Below are positions 12,678-44,552 of a DNA stretch of 46,907 nt, piece after piece. The notes under the pieces are model-generated. The model worked only from the letters and a program-made list of their open reading frames with translations, was not told the DNA's origin and searched no databases. The translations under genes were made by a program, and so were the position numbers. Source of the DNA: Klebsiella phage YX3973; sequence record MK327140.1. One strand, given 5' to 3'. Numbering within the stretch: the stretch's first letter is position 1; every line of letters starts with the position of its first letter.

Positions 12678-13145
12678 CTAAAAGCCATCAAATATCAATG
12701 GCTCTGATGGTTTTTTATAGTTTGGGTAATTCTTTGCTCTCCAGTCGTTAAATGCCATCATCGCCGCTTCCCAACCGAGACATACGCACGCGAAGGATTC
12801 TAATTCTTTTGCAGCCTTGAGGTATGCCATTTGCCCTGGCTGCCATTTTGATAAAGTATGATCCATTCTTTTCATCTCCATAACGAATGATTGCTTTCCG
12901 ATGATAATGATGTCCGAGGCACCGAAGTTTAACGCGCCCTTTTTCTTCAGGTTTTCAACTTCATACCCTTTACGCTTTCCTTCATTTGGAACATGAATCA
13001 TAACTCTTGCAAAGTCAGGATATAGCTTCCTTATCTGATTAACAAAGGTCTCCAGTTCAGCATCTTCTGACGGGCACTTTTTGTTTCTGTAATCTAAATC
13101 TCCATATACCTTAACGCCTTCTGGAAAAATCATAATACCCCCCAA
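12678..13145 (-). CDS. VRR-NUC domain nuclease (PD-(D/E)xK superfamily)
   Basis: IHVPNEGKRKG ... ASDIIII ... FVMEMK motif arrangement typical of VRR-NUC; TTG start with a GGGGGG-type RBS; overlaps the helicase 3' end. Confidence 0.6.
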   Translation of the reverse strand: MGGIMIFPEGVKVYGDLDYRNKKCPSEDAELETFVNQIRKLYPDFARVMIHVPNEGKRKGYEVENLKKKGALNFGASDIIIIGKQSFVMEMKRMDHTLSKWQPGQMAYLKAAKELESFACVCLGWEAAMMAFNDWRAKNYPNYKKPSEPLIFDGF

Positions 13146-16036
13146 TACATGCCTTTAACGTTGAAATATTTACTCCCCTTGTCTCTTCTGAACATAATAA
13201 CTGATGGCGCGACAGCCTCATCTCTTTTTGCTATTGCATCATCAATTGACATGTCAGATTCACCAAAGCACTTCCCGCAAAACTCTTCCCACTCCTTCTT
13301 CATCCATTCCTTCTCAGAGTTTGGATTGTAGAACTTGCTAACAAAAAATGGCTTCTGGTCAATGGCAAATTTTACGTGCACCAAATCTTCACCACTTGAA
13401 ACGTAATGCTTCATAATGTTCATCATGGTTACGCTTGATTGCTTTGTTGCATAAGGAGAAGAATCAAGCCTGTCAGCTTCTTCTTTTAGCTTTTGGTTTG
13501 GGTCAATTATTTCAGCACCGCATGATGTGCAATTTCTTGCTGCTATATCATTTTCAAACCCACAATCTGGACACTCCTTTACCGACCATTTATAAGTACA
13601 CCTATGCATTTCCCTTAGCGGTCCATGCATAACGTAGTTTTTACACCGCCTACCAAAATGAGCAGGCATAGGCTTGCTTCCAATCTTTTCACCTGACTTA
13701 TCAAAAATATCAATCATTACTCTGTCACCCGCCAAATCCAGCCAGTAACCTTCCTTGTCAACTTCAAGATTTTCAGGATTTGGGCGCACACCAAATTCAT
13801 TAATAAAGCCACAAAGAGGGCATTTGACATCCATTGGCACGGATGGTTTTTTCCTTGTTGCTTTTATTTCTGGAGTGAACAAGTCCCCAGTCTCAGAAAA
13901 GTGGCGCTGAATGTTGCCTGCGTAATCGCTGACAAGAAAGTCTTCCTTACCTTCATAAAGACGCGTGCCCCTGCCAATTATTTGCTGGTACAGTCTTGGT
14001 GATTCTGTTGCTCTCATTACTGCTATGTGATCACAATGAGGGACATCAACCCCTACAGTAAGGATATTCTGGTTAACGATGTATTTAACTTTTTGTTCCT
14101 TGAACTCTGATATTGCCTTGTTGCGATCTGCTGTTGGCATATCACCAAAAACATAACTATAAGACCCGGGAGGAAGTGACTCCATTATCTCCATAGCGTG
14201 TTTCTTGGTGCTGGCAAAAATCATAGTTCCGCGCCGATTAACAGAGCGACGGATAATATCTTCAACAATACGTGATGTTTTCCTTCCCTTGCCAACCATC
14301 GCCTTTTCAACTGAAGCTGTTGTGTACCGACCCAACTTATCCTTTTCAAGACAAGACGTATCATACTCGTCAAAAACAGGCTCTGTAACTGGTGGCGTAA
14401 GATATCCATTTTCGATGAGAAATTTAGCTTCAAGCTCATAAACAACCTTGTCATAGTAAGGTTCAATCGCCGTCTCTTCGTCGGTTGGTCCATCAATATA
14501 GTGCTCTTTATAGATATAACCAGTGCCAAGGCGATAAGGTGTAGCGGTCATCCCAATAACACGCAGCTTTGGATTGCGGCGCTTCATCTCATTAATAATA
14601 AATTTAATGGTTGGTGTTATTCCATCACACTCATCAATAATGACAGCACCATACTTATCACCAAACATCTCTATTGAGTTCTTGATTGTAACTGGTGAGC
14701 CAAAAACAACCGGATGCCGCAGGTTTTTTGGCCCAGCCTTTGCGCTGAACATGCTGGCTGGTTCTCCGGTGAGAGAAAGATAACGCTGCCTGTTTTGTAC
14801 AACTAACTCGCTTGTTGGGGCAACACATAGAACACGCTTGCCAGTATTTTTAAAAACCCAATCGGCTATTGATGCAACAACAACGCTTTTACCGCTATTA
14901 TGGTGTATCGTGAAGTCACTAGTTAGATAGAGGTGATCACCATCCAAAGTAAAACCATAGAAATAATCCTCTGGCAATTCTTCAACCGTAAAACCAGTGC
15001 ACAATACGTCTTTCTTCTGCTTTCTTGCTGATGCCTTTTTATAACCAATCATTGGTTTCAAAATATCAATATCACCACTTATCGTGACTCTGTATTTATC
15101 AGAAATGAACTCACCATTCAATGTAGCTGCTCCGGTATTAACGTACGCAGCCAACCCAAGAGAACGAGCCACAAAAGCAACATCATTAGCCAGATGTTTT
15201 GATACAGTAGTTAACTCATAGTAATTGTTACCAAGATAACCGTCCGTATCAATAAGGCCAGAAAGCAATTCAATTCTTTGCTCTCTGGATGCAACCTTAT
15301 AGCAATAAGGAATAAAAACGCTATAAGAATTTTTGTTCAGCAAACCAAGCGATTCCATCTCTACTTGTAAACCATTCTTTTTGCCTCCGCGCTTTCCTTC
15401 GGATGCGTGAATGTGTTTGGTCGATGTTGATTTCTTCATTGTTACGTTTGCATAGCAACCAAAATCTGCAGCCACCTTGCAAAAATAATCAATAAGAACA
15501 TCTTCGCTACCTGAAAAAGTTACAGTTCCTCTGGTGGTTGAGCCATCACCCAACATCATTCCAATAAATCTCGCGGGCAGATTTTGTTTTGCTTCCGGGA
15601 ACTGAACCCCAGCACGACATAACTTATGCGTGTGCTTATGCCATTGGGAAGACGATTCAAACTCTGATACTTTCTCATCAATGTAACCATGCTTTTGAGA
15701 TGGATATTTGCTTCCGCTCGCAACCTTCTTGAGGTGCAATACGTGACTTGCGTTAACAACAAAAGGCTCACCTTTTGTTGGCGTTATCTTTCTCATTGAC
15801 TCTCTGCCACGACACAGAAACAAAACATTGCGCGGCTTGCTGTCCGGCCCCATCAGCTTATCACCGACAACAACATCCTCTACTTTTTTTATGCTGCCAT
15901 CAAACATAAGAACCTCAGTCCCTTTCGCGTGGCAGCCCGTAGGCAAGATGATCATGCACGATGAAACGCTTGAACGAATATGACCTATAACAGAATCAAC
16001 AGCTTCTTGTTGGTATGTTCTAAGCTGTACTTTCAT
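13130..16036 (-). CDS. SF2 (DEAD/DEAH-type) DNA helicase interrupted by an intein; C-terminal zinc-ribbon region
   Basis: Walker A reconstituted as PTG|SGKS across the intein; motif II DECD; CxxC...CxxC pairs near the C-terminus; mature protein ~622 aa. Confidence 0.8.
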   Translation of the reverse strand: MKVQLRTYQQEAVDSVIGHIRSSVSSCMIILPTGCHAKGTEVLMFDGSIKKVEDVVVGDKLMGPDSKPRNVLFLCRGRESMRKITPTKGEPFVVNASHVLHLKKVASGSKYPSQKHGYIDEKVSEFESSSQWHKHTHKLCRAGVQFPEAKQNLPARFIGMMLGDGSTTRGTVTFSGSEDVLIDYFCKVAADFGCYANVTMKKSTSTKHIHASEGKRGGKKNGLQVEMESLGLLNKNSYSVFIPYCYKVASREQRIELLSGLIDTDGYLGNNYYELTTVSKHLANDVAFVARSLGLAAYVNTGAATLNGEFISDKYRVTISGDIDILKPMIGYKKASARKQKKDVLCTGFTVEELPEDYFYGFTLDGDHLYLTSDFTIHHNSGKSVVVASIADWVFKNTGKRVLCVAPTSELVVQNRQRYLSLTGEPASMFSAKAGPKNLRHPVVFGSPVTIKNSIEMFGDKYGAVIIDECDGITPTIKFIINEMKRRNPKLRVIGMTATPYRLGTGYIYKEHYIDGPTDEETAIEPYYDKVVYELEAKFLIENGYLTPPVTEPVFDEYDTSCLEKDKLGRYTTASVEKAMVGKGRKTSRIVEDIIRRSVNRRGTMIFASTKKHAMEIMESLPPGSYSYVFGDMPTADRNKAISEFKEQKVKYIVNQNILTVGVDVPHCDHIAVMRATESPRLYQQIIGRGTRLYEGKEDFLVSDYAGNIQRHFSETGDLFTPEIKATRKKPSVPMDVKCPLCGFINEFGVRPNPENLEVDKEGYWLDLAGDRVMIDIFDKSGEKIGSKPMPAHFGRRCKNYVMHGPLREMHRCTYKWSVKECPDCGFENDIAARNCTSCGAEIIDPNQKLKEEADRLDSSPYATKQSSVTMMNIMKHYVSSGEDLVHVKFAIDQKPFFVSKFYNPNSEKEWMKKEWEEFCGKCFGESDMSIDDAIAKRDEAVAPSVIMFRRDKGSKYFNVKGMYWGVL
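14897..15934 (-). mobile_element. Intein (346 aa) with a double-motif LAGLIDADG homing endonuclease, inserted in the helicase P-loop
   Basis: Starts with Cys35 (CHAKGTEVLMFDG), ends ...FTIHHN followed by Ser; LAGLIDADG motifs GMMLGDGS and LLSGLIDTDGYLG. Confidence 0.8.
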
Positions 16037-16090: not shown

Positions 16091-16612
16091 TCAAAACGGC
16101 ACATCATCACTAAAGTCCATCGTCTGCTCGTTAGACGGTGCAGATTGCTTAGGAGCAGGTGCTGCTTTTGTCTGTTGACGACTGAAAACACCAGCCACAT
16201 AGTTACCAGTTTTTTGCTTATCCTCAGATTCCCAAACGCGCAGAAGAAGAATCATCGGGCGATTTGCAAGCGCACTGGCAATAGCAAAATCAGTCGGCTC
16301 TTTTCCTGATGCCATCAGCTTTCCACCAGCGTTTGCGTCAATTGCTGCAAGCATAGTGATAGCATTGTCTCGCTGCTTTTCTTTAGAGCTAAATACTTTC
16401 AGCTTCTGGAAGATGATGCGATTTTTATACTCACCCTCAAGAATTCGCCACTTAAGATTGAAGAATCGCTCACCTTCCCACTGGTCGTCTTTACATTCTT
16501 CAACGGCAGCAAGAACACGGCTACCATCAGGAATTACTTCGAAACCACCACCCAGCTCAAATTCAGATTTAGATTCAACAGCTTTACCGTCAGAAAGATT
16601 CCAGAAACCCAT
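16091..16612 (-). CDS. SSB-like protein (DUF669-type, Sak4-associated) with SSB-style acidic C-terminal tip ...MDFSDDVPF
   Basis: C-terminal DDVPF tip; sits next to Sak4/Gp157 as in Sak4-type recombination modules. Confidence 0.5.
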   Translation of the reverse strand: MGFWNLSDGKAVESKSEFELGGGFEVIPDGSRVLAAVEECKDDQWEGERFFNLKWRILEGEYKNRIIFQKLKVFSSKEKQRDNAITMLAAIDANAGGKLMASGKEPTDFAIASALANRPMILLLRVWESEDKQKTGNYVAGVFSRQQTKAAPAPKQSAPSNEQTMDFSDDVPF

Positions 16613-40996: not shown

Positions 40997-41002
40997 ACTA
41001 AA

Positions 41003-41026
41003 CCCGCATTATGCGGGTTTTTTATT
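41003..41026. terminator. Rho-independent terminator (aaacccgcattatgcgggtttttt)
   Basis: Read directly. Confidence 0.55.
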
Positions 41027-41058
41027 GGGGGTTTCTATGGCTGTAAGATAAAAGAAAA

Positions 41059-41080
41059 GCCCCGTTGCGGGGCTTTTGAT
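41059..41080. terminator. Second terminator, bidirectional (aaaagccccgttgcggggctttt), ending the leftward ParB-methylase-clamp operon
   Basis: Read directly. Confidence 0.5.
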
Positions 41081-41082
41081 TT

Positions 41083-41619
41083 CTACAGACGCATAGGCAT
41101 AACAACAATCTTCGCATTCTCGCCAGATGGCGCACTAAGACAGCAAACTGCGGCATTTGTATTCCCATTCAATTCAAACTTAACGCCACAGAATTTAGGA
41201 TTAAACAGCCTGGCCACTTTCTCAACGTCAACCAGATAGCCAGCATTGAAGCCAATTTCCTCTGCTGCTTTCGTTCCCTTTGGTATCACGCAGTCAATGT
41301 CAGGGAATCTGCCGTCAATCTCTTCGCAGATGCCAGCGCCAACCATCACGCCAGCTTCATCATGATACGTTGCAATTTTCGACTTGGTATCAATGATGGC
41401 GTAGTCATAGCGTTTTGTTGGAGGTTTGCCAATCTTGATGATCACATTTTCCGTCAACTTATTTTCATGATTGCCGCCAATGAATGCGCGATGACCGTCA
41501 GTAGCGGCAACTCGACCATCAGGCATAAAGCAAATGCCATTCAGGTAGTAGCGCACATCGTTGCGTGCCTGAAATATTAATGCTGATTCAAGTAATAGTT
41601 TGTTGATTTTTAGTTTCAT
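41083..41619 (-). CDS. Truncated beta sliding clamp (DnaN) homologue, 178 aa from ATG 41619: domain II plus the C-terminal part of domain III
   Basis: QARNDVRYYLNGICF..AATDGHRAF, IDGRFPDIDCVIPKG, EIGFNAGYLVDV and C-terminal IVVMPMRL match E. coli DnaN QDVRYYLNGMLF..ATDGHRLA, VDGRFPDYRRVLPKN, EIGFNVSYVLDV and YVVMPMRL, in the same order; GGTGA RBS. Confidence 0.6.
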   Translation of the reverse strand: MKLKINKLLLESALIFQARNDVRYYLNGICFMPDGRVAATDGHRAFIGGNHENKLTENVIIKIGKPPTKRYDYAIIDTKSKIATYHDEAGVMVGAGICEEIDGRFPDIDCVIPKGTKAAEEIGFNAGYLVDVEKVARLFNPKFCGVKFELNGNTNAAVCCLSAPSGENAKIVVMPMRL

Positions 41620-41792
41620 CACTTCACCTTTATCATGTGTTGTTTTGCAACCTTCAGGCATTCATCGAAAATCTTGCCATTCTTTTCACTCTGGTTGCTC
41701 CTGTAGTGGGTAATTGCGGCCTCTATAGCCGCGTTGTCGATGCCTGGCAGTTTTTCGCGCAGGTTTTTCTCTATGAATTGCTCGGGGTTCAT
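41620..41792 (-). CDS. Small 57-aa protein
   Basis: GAGGT RBS; stop overlaps the clamp-homologue ATG. Confidence 0.3.
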
Positions 41793-41802
41793 TAAACTGA
41801 CC

Positions 41803-42315
41803 TCATGAATGCTTTAATGAATTCCGCTGCGACTTGCGTAGATATTCCACTGCTTTAAAAAGCAACACTTCATCGTCCTTGATTACTCCAAGCATATGGT
41901 TGCATCCCCGACACAGTAACCCCCTGACCTTACCTGAAGCGTGACAGTGGTCAACGTGCAGTTGATGAGAATATCTTTCACCGGGTTCATCTCCGCATAT
42001 GGCGCATCTGCCTCCTTGAGAATCCAGCATCTCGACATATTCTTCTTTGCTAATCCCGTACTTTCTTTTTATGTGTCTCCACCTATCTCTATCTTCATTA
42101 ACGCCGTACCTCTCCTTTTCGTAATTCGGATTTTTATCTCGCCATTCCTTTGTTTTCTTCGTTCTGCACTTAGTACATTTTGAGGTGTAACTTCCCCTGC
42201 GCTTATCAAACGTAAACTCGGAAATAGGTTTTTCTTCGGCGCACTCAGAACAAGTCTTCAATAGCCCCTCTGAAAGCGGCGATGAATTCGGCAGCGCACT
42301 GGGGTACGATTGCAT
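41803..42315 (-). CDS. HNH endonuclease, Endo VII-like, with N-terminal CxxC zinc finger (start position uncertain)
   Basis: C-terminal GRCAICGDEPGERYSHQLHVDHCHASGKVRGLLCRGCN; only the C-terminal ~170 aa of the 449-aa ORF are plausible. Confidence 0.5.
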   Translation of the reverse strand: MQSYPSALPNSSPLSEGLLKTCSECAEEKPISEFTFDKRRGSYTSKCTKCRTKKTKEWRDKNPNYEKERYGVNEDRDRWRHIKRKYGISKEEYVEMLDSQGGRCAICGDEPGERYSHQLHVDHCHASGKVRGLLCRGCNHMLGVIKDDEVLLFKAVEYLRKSQRNSLKHS

Positions 42316-43243
42316 TGCCGTATCCTCTGAGGCGGGCAACGCGCGCCGGGATGTCTTTTCCAAGCGGGAATCCGATTTCTTCAAAGGCTGCTGCAACGCA
42401 CGGATCGCCGCTATGTCCCATTCCACCGGGAACCCCATCAACCATCTGCTGTGTCCAGGCCTCAACTGGCCTGAACTTTCCATCCCGGCATCCGATCCAG
42501 TCAGCATCTGACCAGAAGCCGTGATGCGGATTGGTCCAACCTTCCACACTTCCCGCCCCAGCAGGCTGCTTGTAGGCACGTTCAAGCATTCCTTCCCATC
42601 CTTGTGGTCGCGTGTCGTTGGCGTCGGCCACGCGGCCAGCTTCGCCTGTCCGGGTAGCTTCAGGCATATCTTTCTGTCCTTCCCGCTGTAGCAATGCGTG
42701 CTGCCGGTTGTGTCGTTTACTATTGGTGTCGCCCAGTTGCCGCGCTCCAAAGAACAGCCTGTCTCTTTTGTGCGGGGCACCGACGCTGCCCGCTGGCAAT
42801 ACTGCCGACCCGCAGGCGTAGCCTTTGTCTTCCAAGTTAAGGAATACAAAATCGAGCCAGTGCTTTCCAATTGCTGCCGCAACCTGCTCTCCAAACAGCA
42901 ATTGAGGCTTGCACTCTCTGATGAGCCTGAGAAATGCTGGGGCAAGGTGCCGCTCGTCGTCAAATCCGAGAGACTTACCGGCAACGCTAAACGGCTGGCA
43001 AGGTGGTGATCCTGTCCAGAGCTGAGTGCTTGCTGGTATTCCAGCCAACTGGAGTGCAAGGGGCCACCCTCCGATTCCGGCAAAGAAGTGACACTGTGTA
43101 AATCCTTCCAGGTCTGAAGGGGTGACTTCGGTGATTGATCGTTCATCGACATATCCGTAAGGAATTAGTTTATTGTTAATTAACTCTCGCAGCCACGCCG
43201 CTGCACTTGCGTCCCATTCGTTGTAGTAGCTGGCTGTCATCAC
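42245..43243 (-). CDS. DNA (cytosine-5)-methyltransferase (Dcm-like)
   Basis: Motif I FAGIGG, motif IV SPPCQPFS, motif VI LFGEQV, motif X GYGNAIVP. Confidence 0.8.
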   Translation of the reverse strand: MMTASYYNEWDASAAAWLRELINNKLIPYGYVDERSITEVTPSDLEGFTQCHFFAGIGGWPLALQLAGIPASTQLWTGSPPCQPFSVAGKSLGFDDERHLAPAFLRLIRECKPQLLFGEQVAAAIGKHWLDFVFLNLEDKGYACGSAVLPAGSVGAPHKRDRLFFGARQLGDTNSKRHNRQHALLQREGQKDMPEATRTGEAGRVADANDTRPQGWEGMLERAYKQPAGAGSVEGWTNPHHGFWSDADWIGCRDGKFRPVEAWTQQMVDGVPGGMGHSGDPCVAAAFEEIGFPLGKDIPARVARLRGYGNAIVPQCAAEFIAAFRGAIEDLF

Positions 43244-44055
43244 AGCTTCTCCAGAATAGCCAGGACTTCACTCAACTCAGCGGAAGGAAGGCGCAAAAAT
43301 TCTTCTGTCTCCTGTGCCACATGACCCTCAGCGACAACCATATGGTCTGCTTCTTTCAGCAACTGAATCAGGCGGTCAATCGGCTTAACTTTTTTGGCCT
43401 TGAGCGTTTTAGCCGTCACCTTATCTTTGCCCTGCGCTTTCGCTTCCTCAACGGCGGCATCAATAACGTTAACGGCATCATCGCCATGCTCACGTGCGAC
43501 CGCAACGGCGTTGGCATAGCTGATTTGGCCTGCATTGATACGCTGCTTGATGGCATCAGGTACGTCACCAAGTGACAGGTGCATCTGCACATCAGAAACT
43601 GAGCGACCGACCTTCTTGGCGATTTCTTCATTCGTCCACCCGAACCCTTTGAGGCGCACATAAGCCTTTGCACGCTCAAGCGGGTCGAGTTGCTTGCCCT
43701 GACTTGAAGACACCATGAAGGCGATTTTATCCGCCTCATCGCCGGTGAAGTCTTTGCACTCAATTCGCGCAATTGGCACGCCGCGCTCAATGGCACGCAG
43801 TGCTCCAAGGTAACGATGCTGGCCGTCAAGAATCTTGATGCGCTTTCCGTCGGCATCAGGAATAACAGTTAACGCCGGGATTGGCTGCCCTGATTCCCAA
43901 CACTGCGCGAAGTATTCAACGTGCTGCTCATCGGCTTCGCGGATGTTGTACCCCGGCTCAAGGTAAAGCTGGTCGACAGGGACCTGATAACCTTTGTTGA
44001 CCACGATTCCGCCGCGAGTTTCTTTGTCTGAGTAAATTTTTCCGAGAGATGTCAT
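43240..44055 (-). CDS. ParB N-terminal-domain (ParB/Srx-like nuclease) protein
   Basis: ILDGQHRY motif; GAGGGAAAG RBS before ATG 44055; ATGA overlap with the methylase. Confidence 0.6.
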   Translation of the reverse strand: MTSLGKIYSDKETRGGIVVNKGYQVPVDQLYLEPGYNIREADEQHVEYFAQCWESGQPIPALTVIPDADGKRIKILDGQHRYLGALRAIERGVPIARIECKDFTGDEADKIAFMVSSSQGKQLDPLERAKAYVRLKGFGWTNEEIAKKVGRSVSDVQMHLSLGDVPDAIKQRINAGQISYANAVAVAREHGDDAVNVIDAAVEEAKAQGKDKVTAKTLKAKKVKPIDRLIQLLKEADHMVVAEGHVAQETEEFLRLPSAELSEVLAILEKL

Positions 44056-44062
44056 CTTTCCC

Positions 44063-44179
44063 TCACTTTGATAAACAGATTGCACTGGCAATGGCGAATC
44101 CGATAACGATTAACGCCAGCTTGATTTTGAACTTATCCCACGCCTTCAGGTCTTCTTTTCGTATTTCGTTGCGGATCAT
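44063..44179 (-). CDS. Small 38-aa single-TM peptide
   Basis: GGAGAA RBS; ATGA overlap with the upstream gene; hydrophobic LALIVIGFAIASAI. Confidence 0.3.
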   Translation of the reverse strand: MIRNEIRKEDLKAWDKFKIKLALIVIGFAIASAICLSK

Positions 44180-44475
44180 TTTGATTCTCCGAGTGCTTTT
44201 TTGATAGCTTCTCGTGCGATGGTTATTGCATGCTCTGGCCCATATTCTTCATCATCTGCAACTCTAACTAATAAACCCTTCAACGCTTCCAGTAATTCCG
44301 GAGCAGCGGCAATCAGGTCAGCATCTTCGCGCCGATATACTGTGTCACAAATGCATTCACCGTCAGTGCCGAAAGTCACCTCGAGGTGTACAAGTGCAGG
44401 ATTGTTCCAGTGTTTCCCAATAGTGTTTACACGCCATGGCCCCGGCGTACCTTTGAATTCATTCATCCTCATCAC
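44176..44475 (-). CDS. Hypothetical protein (99 aa), first gene of the leftward accessory operon
   Basis: ORF track. Confidence 0.4.
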   Translation of the reverse strand: MMRMNEFKGTPGPWRVNTIGKHWNNPALVHLEVTFGTDGECICDTVYRREDADLIAAAPELLEALKGLLVRVADDEEYGPEHAITIAREAIKKALGESK

Positions 44476-44494: not shown

Positions 44495-44552
44495 TTCTAC
44501 GTCATCACTATAGCGACACCCTCAATCTACGTCAACACTTTATGATAAAATT
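44495..44552. promoter_or_regulatory. Divergent regulatory region: degenerate 12-mer TTTCTACGTCAT (44495-44506), canonical AATCTACGTCAA (44524-44535), + strand extended -10 TGATAAAAT
   Basis: Same architecture as 33170-33221. Confidence 0.4.

Follow-up and report, generated by a model that had tools for sequence, protein, structure and literature searches.

What might a sliding clamp homologue do when the parts that close the ring are missing? This question is raised by a short gene of Klebsiella phage YX3973, located on the minus strand at 41083..41619 of the sequence record MK327140.1 (46,907 nucleotides, hereafter the window), which is the genome of a Klebsiella siphophage. The gene encodes 178 amino acids (aa), and its stop codon lies at 41083-41085. 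A previous reading of the letters alone (the sequence-only reading) had taken it for a truncated homologue of DnaN, the bacterial beta clamp. This observation was confirmed by structure-database, profile, and fold matches and by the presence of the motifs. In brief, the product (hereafter the clamp homologue) retains the pocket that receives clamp-binding motifs (CBMs) and lacks the elements that close the ring and line its channel; we give about even chances to its being a non-ring module that binds CBMs, most likely those of the host.

The homology to DnaN is far beyond chance. A phmmer search against all chains of the Protein Data Bank returned beta sliding clamps exclusively, the best of which was gamma-proteobacterial (E 7e-12), with residues 7-154 aligned on beta 136-289 and residues 118-178 alternatively aligned on beta 313-366. 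The profile comparison suggested by the sequence-only reading gave a divided outcome: the Pfam single-domain models beta_2 and beta_3 remained below threshold (16.6 and 17.1 bits, respectively, versus a cutoff of 27), whereas a profile of alignment A1, consisting of 104 diverse family members with roughly 30-50% identity, matched E. coli beta at E 5e-28. With TIGR00663, the NCBIfam equivalog model of DnaN, the clamp homologue scored 31.4 bits against a cutoff of 137.65, and the protein is therefore a homologue of DnaN and not DnaN itself.

The gene belongs to the family of short phage polIII-beta homologues, PHROG 3007. The profile phrog_3007 was matched at E 2.3e-62, with aa 1-178 covering profile positions 1-186 of 190, and the protein is 97% identical to KpV2811 gp36. 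When 1.84 billion cluster representatives were searched exhaustively, 1578 relatives were found at E <= 1e-3. Nearly all of the top ~110 are 170-210 aa long and aligned end to end, and full-length DnaN first appears at ~E 1e-12. At 50% identity, the relatives aligned end to end fall into more than 100 clusters; the median length of the family is 187 aa. A decayed pseudogene fragment was rejected on the grounds that length and motifs are kept across these clusters and that the structural model is confident and compact. An anti-phage defence protein was likewise rejected, as no PADLOC match was obtained.

This family is already known and annotated. Shorter phage polIII-beta homologues were reported in 2011 by Kazlauskas and Venclovas, who described them as covering domains II and III (PMC3201878), and a 2016 survey by the same authors posed the role of stand-alone polIII-beta homologues in polymerase-less genomes as a question (PMC4889955). 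In its record, Bcep781 gp15 is noted as a "DNA Pol III b subunit fragment", and the family occurs in at least 272 phage records, with hosts including Salmonella, Escherichia, Vibrio, Klebsiella, Burkholderia, Pseudomonas, and Shewanella. The claim of the sequence-only reading that truncated clamps are not a commonly annotated phage function was therefore wrong. Many of the GenBank records are named "DNA polymerase III beta subunit", and RefSeq and PHROGs use "RusA-like Holliday junction resolvase". The latter assignment was examined and rejected: there was no RusA Pfam match at E <= 10, and BLASTP against a genuine RusA (Bcep781 gp22) gave an E value of 4.6. The RusA-like name in PHROG 3007 and RefSeq (e.g. 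NC_054653.1 gp36) is a propagated annotation error. Our literature search found no experimental or functional study of the short phage clamp family.

The segments of the clamp that are present were delimited with a hidden Markov model of the family. The model aligned end to end with a synthetic construct joining beta 125-253 and 313-366 (107 bits), whereas beta 125-312 scored 83 bits; beta 313-366 alone scored 25.2 bits, and 254-312 alone scored 5.9 bits. The clamp homologue thus consists of domain II (~125-253) followed by the interdomain linker and the later half of domain III (~313-366); it has neither domain I nor the earlier half of domain III, and its domain II is short of one helix of the channel lining. 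In the gene, the domain II-like module (41317..41619, minus strand; aa 1-101, corresponding to beta ~130-237) was delimited by alignments and modelled secondary structure, and its DVRYYLNG loop and ATDGHR strand form pocket subsite I. The linker DGRFPD...P (41272..41316, minus strand; aa 102-116, beta 238-252) supplies the pocket residues P242, R246, and V247. The remaining beta-alpha-beta-beta-beta half-domain (41086..41271, minus strand; aa 117-178, beta 313-366) is the second half of domain III, in which EIGFN..Y and the VVMPMRL tail form pocket subsite II. Helix alpha2 of domain II, which has 16 residues between strands in E. coli beta, is replaced by a 9-residue Pro/Gly-rich loop, and this loop length is found in 74 of the 104 members of A1.

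The structure prediction was consistent with this architecture. AlphaFold without an alignment was unusable (predicted local distance difference test, pLDDT, of 36), and the 104-sequence A1 run was taken instead, for which AlphaFold2 gave a monomer with a pLDDT of 97.0 and a predicted template modelling (TM) score of 0.91. The model contains 12 strands and only two long helices and can be superposed on an unbroken arc of the beta ring. Foldseek concurred, with alignments ~260 columns long, a length to be expected if about 60-80 clamp residues are skipped. Many phage models of the same size and fold were also found in BFVD, with TM scores of 0.8-0.9.

The published CBM pocket of beta comprises R152, L155, T172, G174, H175, R176, L177, P242, R246, V247, V360, and M362 in subsite I and H175, N320, Y323, V344, M362, P363, M364, and R365 in subsite II (PMC11139829). 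Of these 18 residues, 15 are identical between the clamp homologue and E. coli beta, whereas outside the pocket only 41 of the 149 aligned positions agree (Fisher p 6e-6). In alignment A1, with Met1 set aside, pocket residues account for 10 of the 14 most conserved columns (R152, L155, T172, G174, H175, P242, Y323, M362, P363, and R365; hypergeometric p 9e-9). P106, the equivalent of P242, is the top conserved column of the family, and other highly conserved columns (D150, Y154, and G157) lie in the loop adjoining the pocket. Both results bear out the proposal of the sequence-only reading that the protein-binding cleft was kept, and the conservation pattern indicates that the CBM pocket is retained under strong purifying selection. 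Beyond the published descriptions, the present analysis defines an architecture of 1.5 domains and a helix loss across the family, and shows statistically that conservation is concentrated on the pocket. Compared with the other short phage polIII-beta homologues (PHROG 3007, Bcep781 gp15), the YX3973 protein is of the same family and length (~180 aa) and differs in nothing essential, but this ~180-aa group holds only 1.5 domains rather than the second and the third domain given in the literature.

The features that make DnaN a ring showed the opposite pattern. The beta dimer is held together by I78 and F106 of domain I with I272, L273, E298, and E304 (PMC11139829), and all of these residues lie in absent segments, the first two in domain I and the other four within 254-312. 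The domain III side of the interface, which the sequence-only reading had believed to be preserved, is therefore deleted along with its domain I partners. A closed ring around DNA is most likely not formed by the clamp homologue, because domain I, the interface half of domain III, and one channel helix are lost. The clamp homologue also has a basic isoelectric point (pI) of 8.2 (family median 8.3), whereas ring clamps are acidic, by an electrostatic argument (PMC3201878). Compared with DnaN of E. coli or Klebsiella, the phage protein is thus 178 rather than 366 aa long and basic rather than acidic. Domain I, helix alpha2 of domain II, the initial half of domain III, and the dimer-interface residues are gone, but both subsites of the CBM pocket are shared by residue identity.

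The same residues bear on the idea that the protein caps host DnaN protomers, acting as a poison subunit that heterodimerises with host beta and blocks closure of the ring. The two proteins share a fold, and the domain II-like part has free edge strands; nevertheless, capping is disfavoured by the absence of the natural interface on both its sides, and poisoning of beta would also be damaging to a phage dependent on host Pol III. We regard this explanation as very improbable.

A ring could alternatively be built from the phage protein itself, with four 1.5-domain protomers arranged as a D2 dimer of dimers into a six-domain processivity ring. The arithmetic is suitable, as four times 1.5 domains makes six, the model matches an unbroken arc of the ring, and the exposed face of the half-domain might invite pairing. 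However, an odd number of half-domains would bar a head-to-tail ring and leave D2 symmetry, with pockets facing both sides, as the sole fit. In addition, each protomer is one inner helix short and without the canonical interface residues, the pI is basic, and the phage has no clamp loader. Such a ring appears quite unlikely to us. In this arrangement, the protein would be an analogue of E. coli beta*, which was reportedly described by Skaliter and Livneh in 1996 as a UV-inducible short beta made from an internal start in dnaN, containing domains II-III and forming a ring clamp. Like the phage protein, beta* is said to be an N-terminally truncated clamp, starting near residue 135, with the pocket kept; unlike it, beta* is said to keep domain III entire, together with the interface, whereas the phage protein lacks 254-312 and one inner helix. 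Tandem or fused forms were absent among the top relatives, and P0242 was a WD40 false positive.

The replication genes of YX3973 encode a Prim-Pol/PriCT_2/DUF3987 primase-helicase, a superfamily 2 (SF2) helicase, AAA_24, Gp157, and a DUF669 protein resembling single-stranded DNA-binding protein (SSB). No A-, B-, or C-family DNA polymerase and no phage clamp loader gene were found in the window. Non-ring viral processivity factors, namely herpes simplex virus UL42, human cytomegalovirus UL44, and Epstein-Barr virus BMRF1, consist of two complete domains, and a cognate polymerase is in every case encoded alongside them (PMC4889955). They have no detectable sequence relationship to the clamp homologue and, unlike in their systems, there is no phage polymerase in the YX3973 window. 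By analogy with UL42, the clamp homologue could be a loader-independent tether or adaptor, whose basic concave face sits on DNA or on a phage replisome protein while the pocket holds a polymerase. Host Pol III or a phage polymerase would then be recruited to phage DNA and not sequestered. Against this, three channel helices would be expected and one of them is lost, neither a second binding surface nor a partner was identified, and no CBM turned up in the phage replication proteins. Furthermore, a DNA-bound tether alone cannot tell phage from host DNA (a point made in PMC4889955). We therefore consider a tether possible but unlikely.

The reading that we prefer is that of a non-ring pocket module, because the pocket is kept, the elements that close the ring and line the channel have gone, the protein is basic, and no clamp loader is encoded. 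In this proposal, the clamp homologue would be a streamlined derivative of a proteobacterial beta clamp, reduced to the smallest contiguous piece that can still form the CBM pocket, and would serve as a soluble, off-ring receptor for clamp-binding motifs of the type Q-phi-x-(L/M)-(x)-(F/L). It could compete with or replace host beta on CBM proteins such as Pol III alpha/epsilon, delta, Hda, Pol II/IV/V, MutS/L, and RecB, and clamp-dependent host processes might thereby be redirected or blunted during phage DNA replication. For RecB, binding of the motif QVEMEF to the canonical clamp pocket has been described (PMC13254535). No convincing CBM was found in the operon, replication-module, or modification proteins, and the matches of a regular-expression scan that included the window proteome were not above chance. 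One match, QMHLSL in ParB, was rejected since it sits in the helix-turn-helix (HTH) helix of that protein. As no convincing CBM was found in the scanned phage proteins, the ligand is probably a host protein. Binding of peptides, the non-ring state, the ligand's identity, and the effect on physiology are what we infer from these observations, and titration of clamp-binding proteins is the best available of the functions suggested by the sequence-only reading.

Several points weigh against this proposal. The pocket is the most conserved part of DnaN generally, so that the conservation signal is partly inherited and not specific. A sponge for Pol III-beta contacts would harm a phage reliant on host Pol III, and some selectivity must therefore be assumed; a monomeric pocket would compete mainly for single-motif clients and not for the multivalent replisome. 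Bcep781, which has its own PolA, also carries the family, and thus the gene is not restricted to phages lacking a polymerase. Taken with the varied gene contexts, its occurrence in phages with PolA means that no single target common to all is evident.

These contexts were compared among the relatives. In Skarpretter, the clamp homologue is flanked by Dam and Dcm methylases, and in Vibrio phage PVP-XSN it adjoins an N6-methyltransferase and an SSB. In Bcep781, a Kagunavirus, and Shewanella phage 1/41, it is a lone opposite-strand gene amid head genes. In many lambdoid relatives (46-56% identity), the gene lies directly between cII and Phage_rep_O plus DnaB/DnaC-like genes, a position that counts in favour of the preferred reading, as does the absence of a phage DNA polymerase from the YX3973 window. 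An IMG/VR search identified 347 stretches encoding a relative; it used a 29-sequence sub-alignment and returned mostly close relatives, and the metagenomic contigs with distant members were too short for useful gene context.

A further possibility is that the protein is an accessory of DNA modification, coupling a methyltransferase, ParB-like, or Nmad5 enzyme to replication in the manner of PCNA and DNMT1. Modification genes are indeed found near the homologue in unrelated lineages (YX3973, Skarpretter, PVP-XSN, and Dhillonvirus), but this context is absent in the lambdoid relatives, Kagunavirus, Shewanella phage 1/41, and Bcep781. In addition, methyltransferases are common in phage early regions anyway, and the neighbouring modification proteins are without a CBM. 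Such a coupling role would have only a small chance of being correct.

A separate observation was made in Escherichia phage vB_EcoS-101114BS4 (Dhillonvirus, L004:5176-5940), in which the short clamp gene and an Nmad5 gene (Pfam E 1e-54) constitute a two-gene opposite-strand cassette within the block of head genes. Dhillonvirus phages can escape the Tmn defence through a point mutation in Nmad5, according to a paper in which the clamp homologue is unmentioned (PMC11846954).

More broadly, we tentatively suggest, as a rather doubtful extension, that the ~180-aa proteins may constitute a distinct host-interaction class of ring-incompetent, monomeric "clamp-pocket decoys or adaptors" for Q-phi-x-(L/M)-x-F tails. 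Candidate ligands would be Pol III alpha, Hda, delta, and RecB through QVEMEF, as well as the adjacent CII tail in the lambdoid relatives.

With regard to the CII proteins themselves, lambda-type C-terminal ends have the form Q-[IV]-x-[MI]-x-F and fit the hexameric CBM consensus, with QIQMEF in lambda (cII at L097:61-354) and QVTMNF, QISMEF, QITINF, and QIDMHF in relatives. The cII homologues just upstream of short clamp genes were located at L011:2684-2983, L080:4689-4982, and L088:4699-4992 and in L077 and L079. In a scan of neighbouring genes for terminal CBMs, the CII tail was the sole find, and it was present in about half of the lambdoid neighbours. Lambda, whose CII has the motif, has no short clamp, and the tail is therefore not strictly co-conserved; as about half of the CII neighbours are without the motif, the link is suggestive only. 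Toxicity and replication inhibition by CII have been documented (PMC5869508), and our literature search found no paper tying CII to a clamp-binding motif.

The local organisation of the gene was also analysed. The clamp homologue is the last gene of a minus-strand block in the order orf99, ParB-like, C5-methylase, Endonuclease VII, orf57, and clamp homologue. The first ORF, orf99 (44176-44475), is preceded by the best sigma-70-like promoter match (44507..44535, minus strand; 10/12), which is a consensus match only; four sigma-70-like sites were found in the region compared with 3.7 expected from shuffles. The ParB-like gene (HTH_ParB/KorB; 43240..44091), the C5-cytosine DNA methylase gene dcm (42245..43243; Pfam DNA_methylase, E 7e-21), and the HNH-type Endonuclease VII gene (41803..42264; Pfam Endonuclease_7, E 7e-25) belong to the same operon, all on the minus strand. 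They are followed by orf57, a 57-aa ORF (41619..41792, minus strand) that matched no family and overlaps the start of the clamp homologue in TGATG, an arrangement by which the two genes are translationally coupled. Read from the sequence, a Shine-Dalgarno-like AAGGTGA (41624..41630, minus strand) lies 4 nt ahead of the ATG at 41619. An in-frame 192-aa version of the clamp ORF is likewise open, and Met1 of the 178-aa form is kept in 95% of the family alignment. Directly past the stop codon is an intrinsic-terminator-like hairpin with a T-run (41055..41077, minus strand), opposed by a second, bidirectional hairpin at 41000-41020 that closes the convergent head-gene block. Co-transcription with the ParB-like, Dcm, and HNH genes, as put forward in the sequence-only reading, is thus supported by the tight same-strand block, the promoter-like site upstream, and the terminator just after it. 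Over the region compared, the window is 96.4% identical to Klebsiella phage vB_KpnS_ZX4 and 99.1% identical to Klebsiella phage KpV2811.

Within this operon, a second open frame was noted. An ORF of 449 aa (41803-43152, minus strand) crosses nearly all of dcm in the +1 frame and then enters the Endonuclease VII domain, and no Pfam family was found for it. The overlapping part gave tblastn matches in 243 phage records, and the matches in N15, Seifer, and RcPescado are out of frame with the annotated methylase. The non-coding +2 frame also yields a "shadow" similarity, and similarity alone therefore proves nothing. In synonymous-codon shuffles, the observed +1 open length was reached in 0/2000 cases for the window, 0/2000 for Seifer, 14/2000 for N15, and 175/2000 for RcPescado. 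The 449-aa ORF is thus a candidate for a conserved overprinted gene.

Two observations concern the replication module. The SF2 helicase (ResIII/DEAD/Helicase_C; 13133-16036, minus strand; 968 aa) contains an intein with Hom_end_hint and LAGLIDADG endonuclease domains; the helicase gene of KpV2811 is 2043 bp (about 680 aa). The DUF669 protein (16094-16612, minus strand) ends in ...MDFSDDVPF, an acidic SSB-type tip, and the annotated SSB of PVP-XSN ends in ...MDFDDDIPF. This similarity suggests that the DUF669 protein is the phage SSB, and it may recruit host SSB-interacting proteins.

Stand-alone phage polIII-beta homologues, those of polymerase-less phages among them, have been marked as unexplained in global surveys of replication genes in viruses (PMC3201878, PMC4889955), and the present analysis turns an annotation into a testable function. 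If the decoy or adaptor proposal is true, clamp mimicry would be tied to replication takeover, RecBCD evasion, or the stability or toxicity of CII. If CBMs are bound, the family would provide a natural minimal scaffold of the pocket targeted by beta-clamp antibiotic programmes and would represent a new phage route to manipulate host replication and repair.
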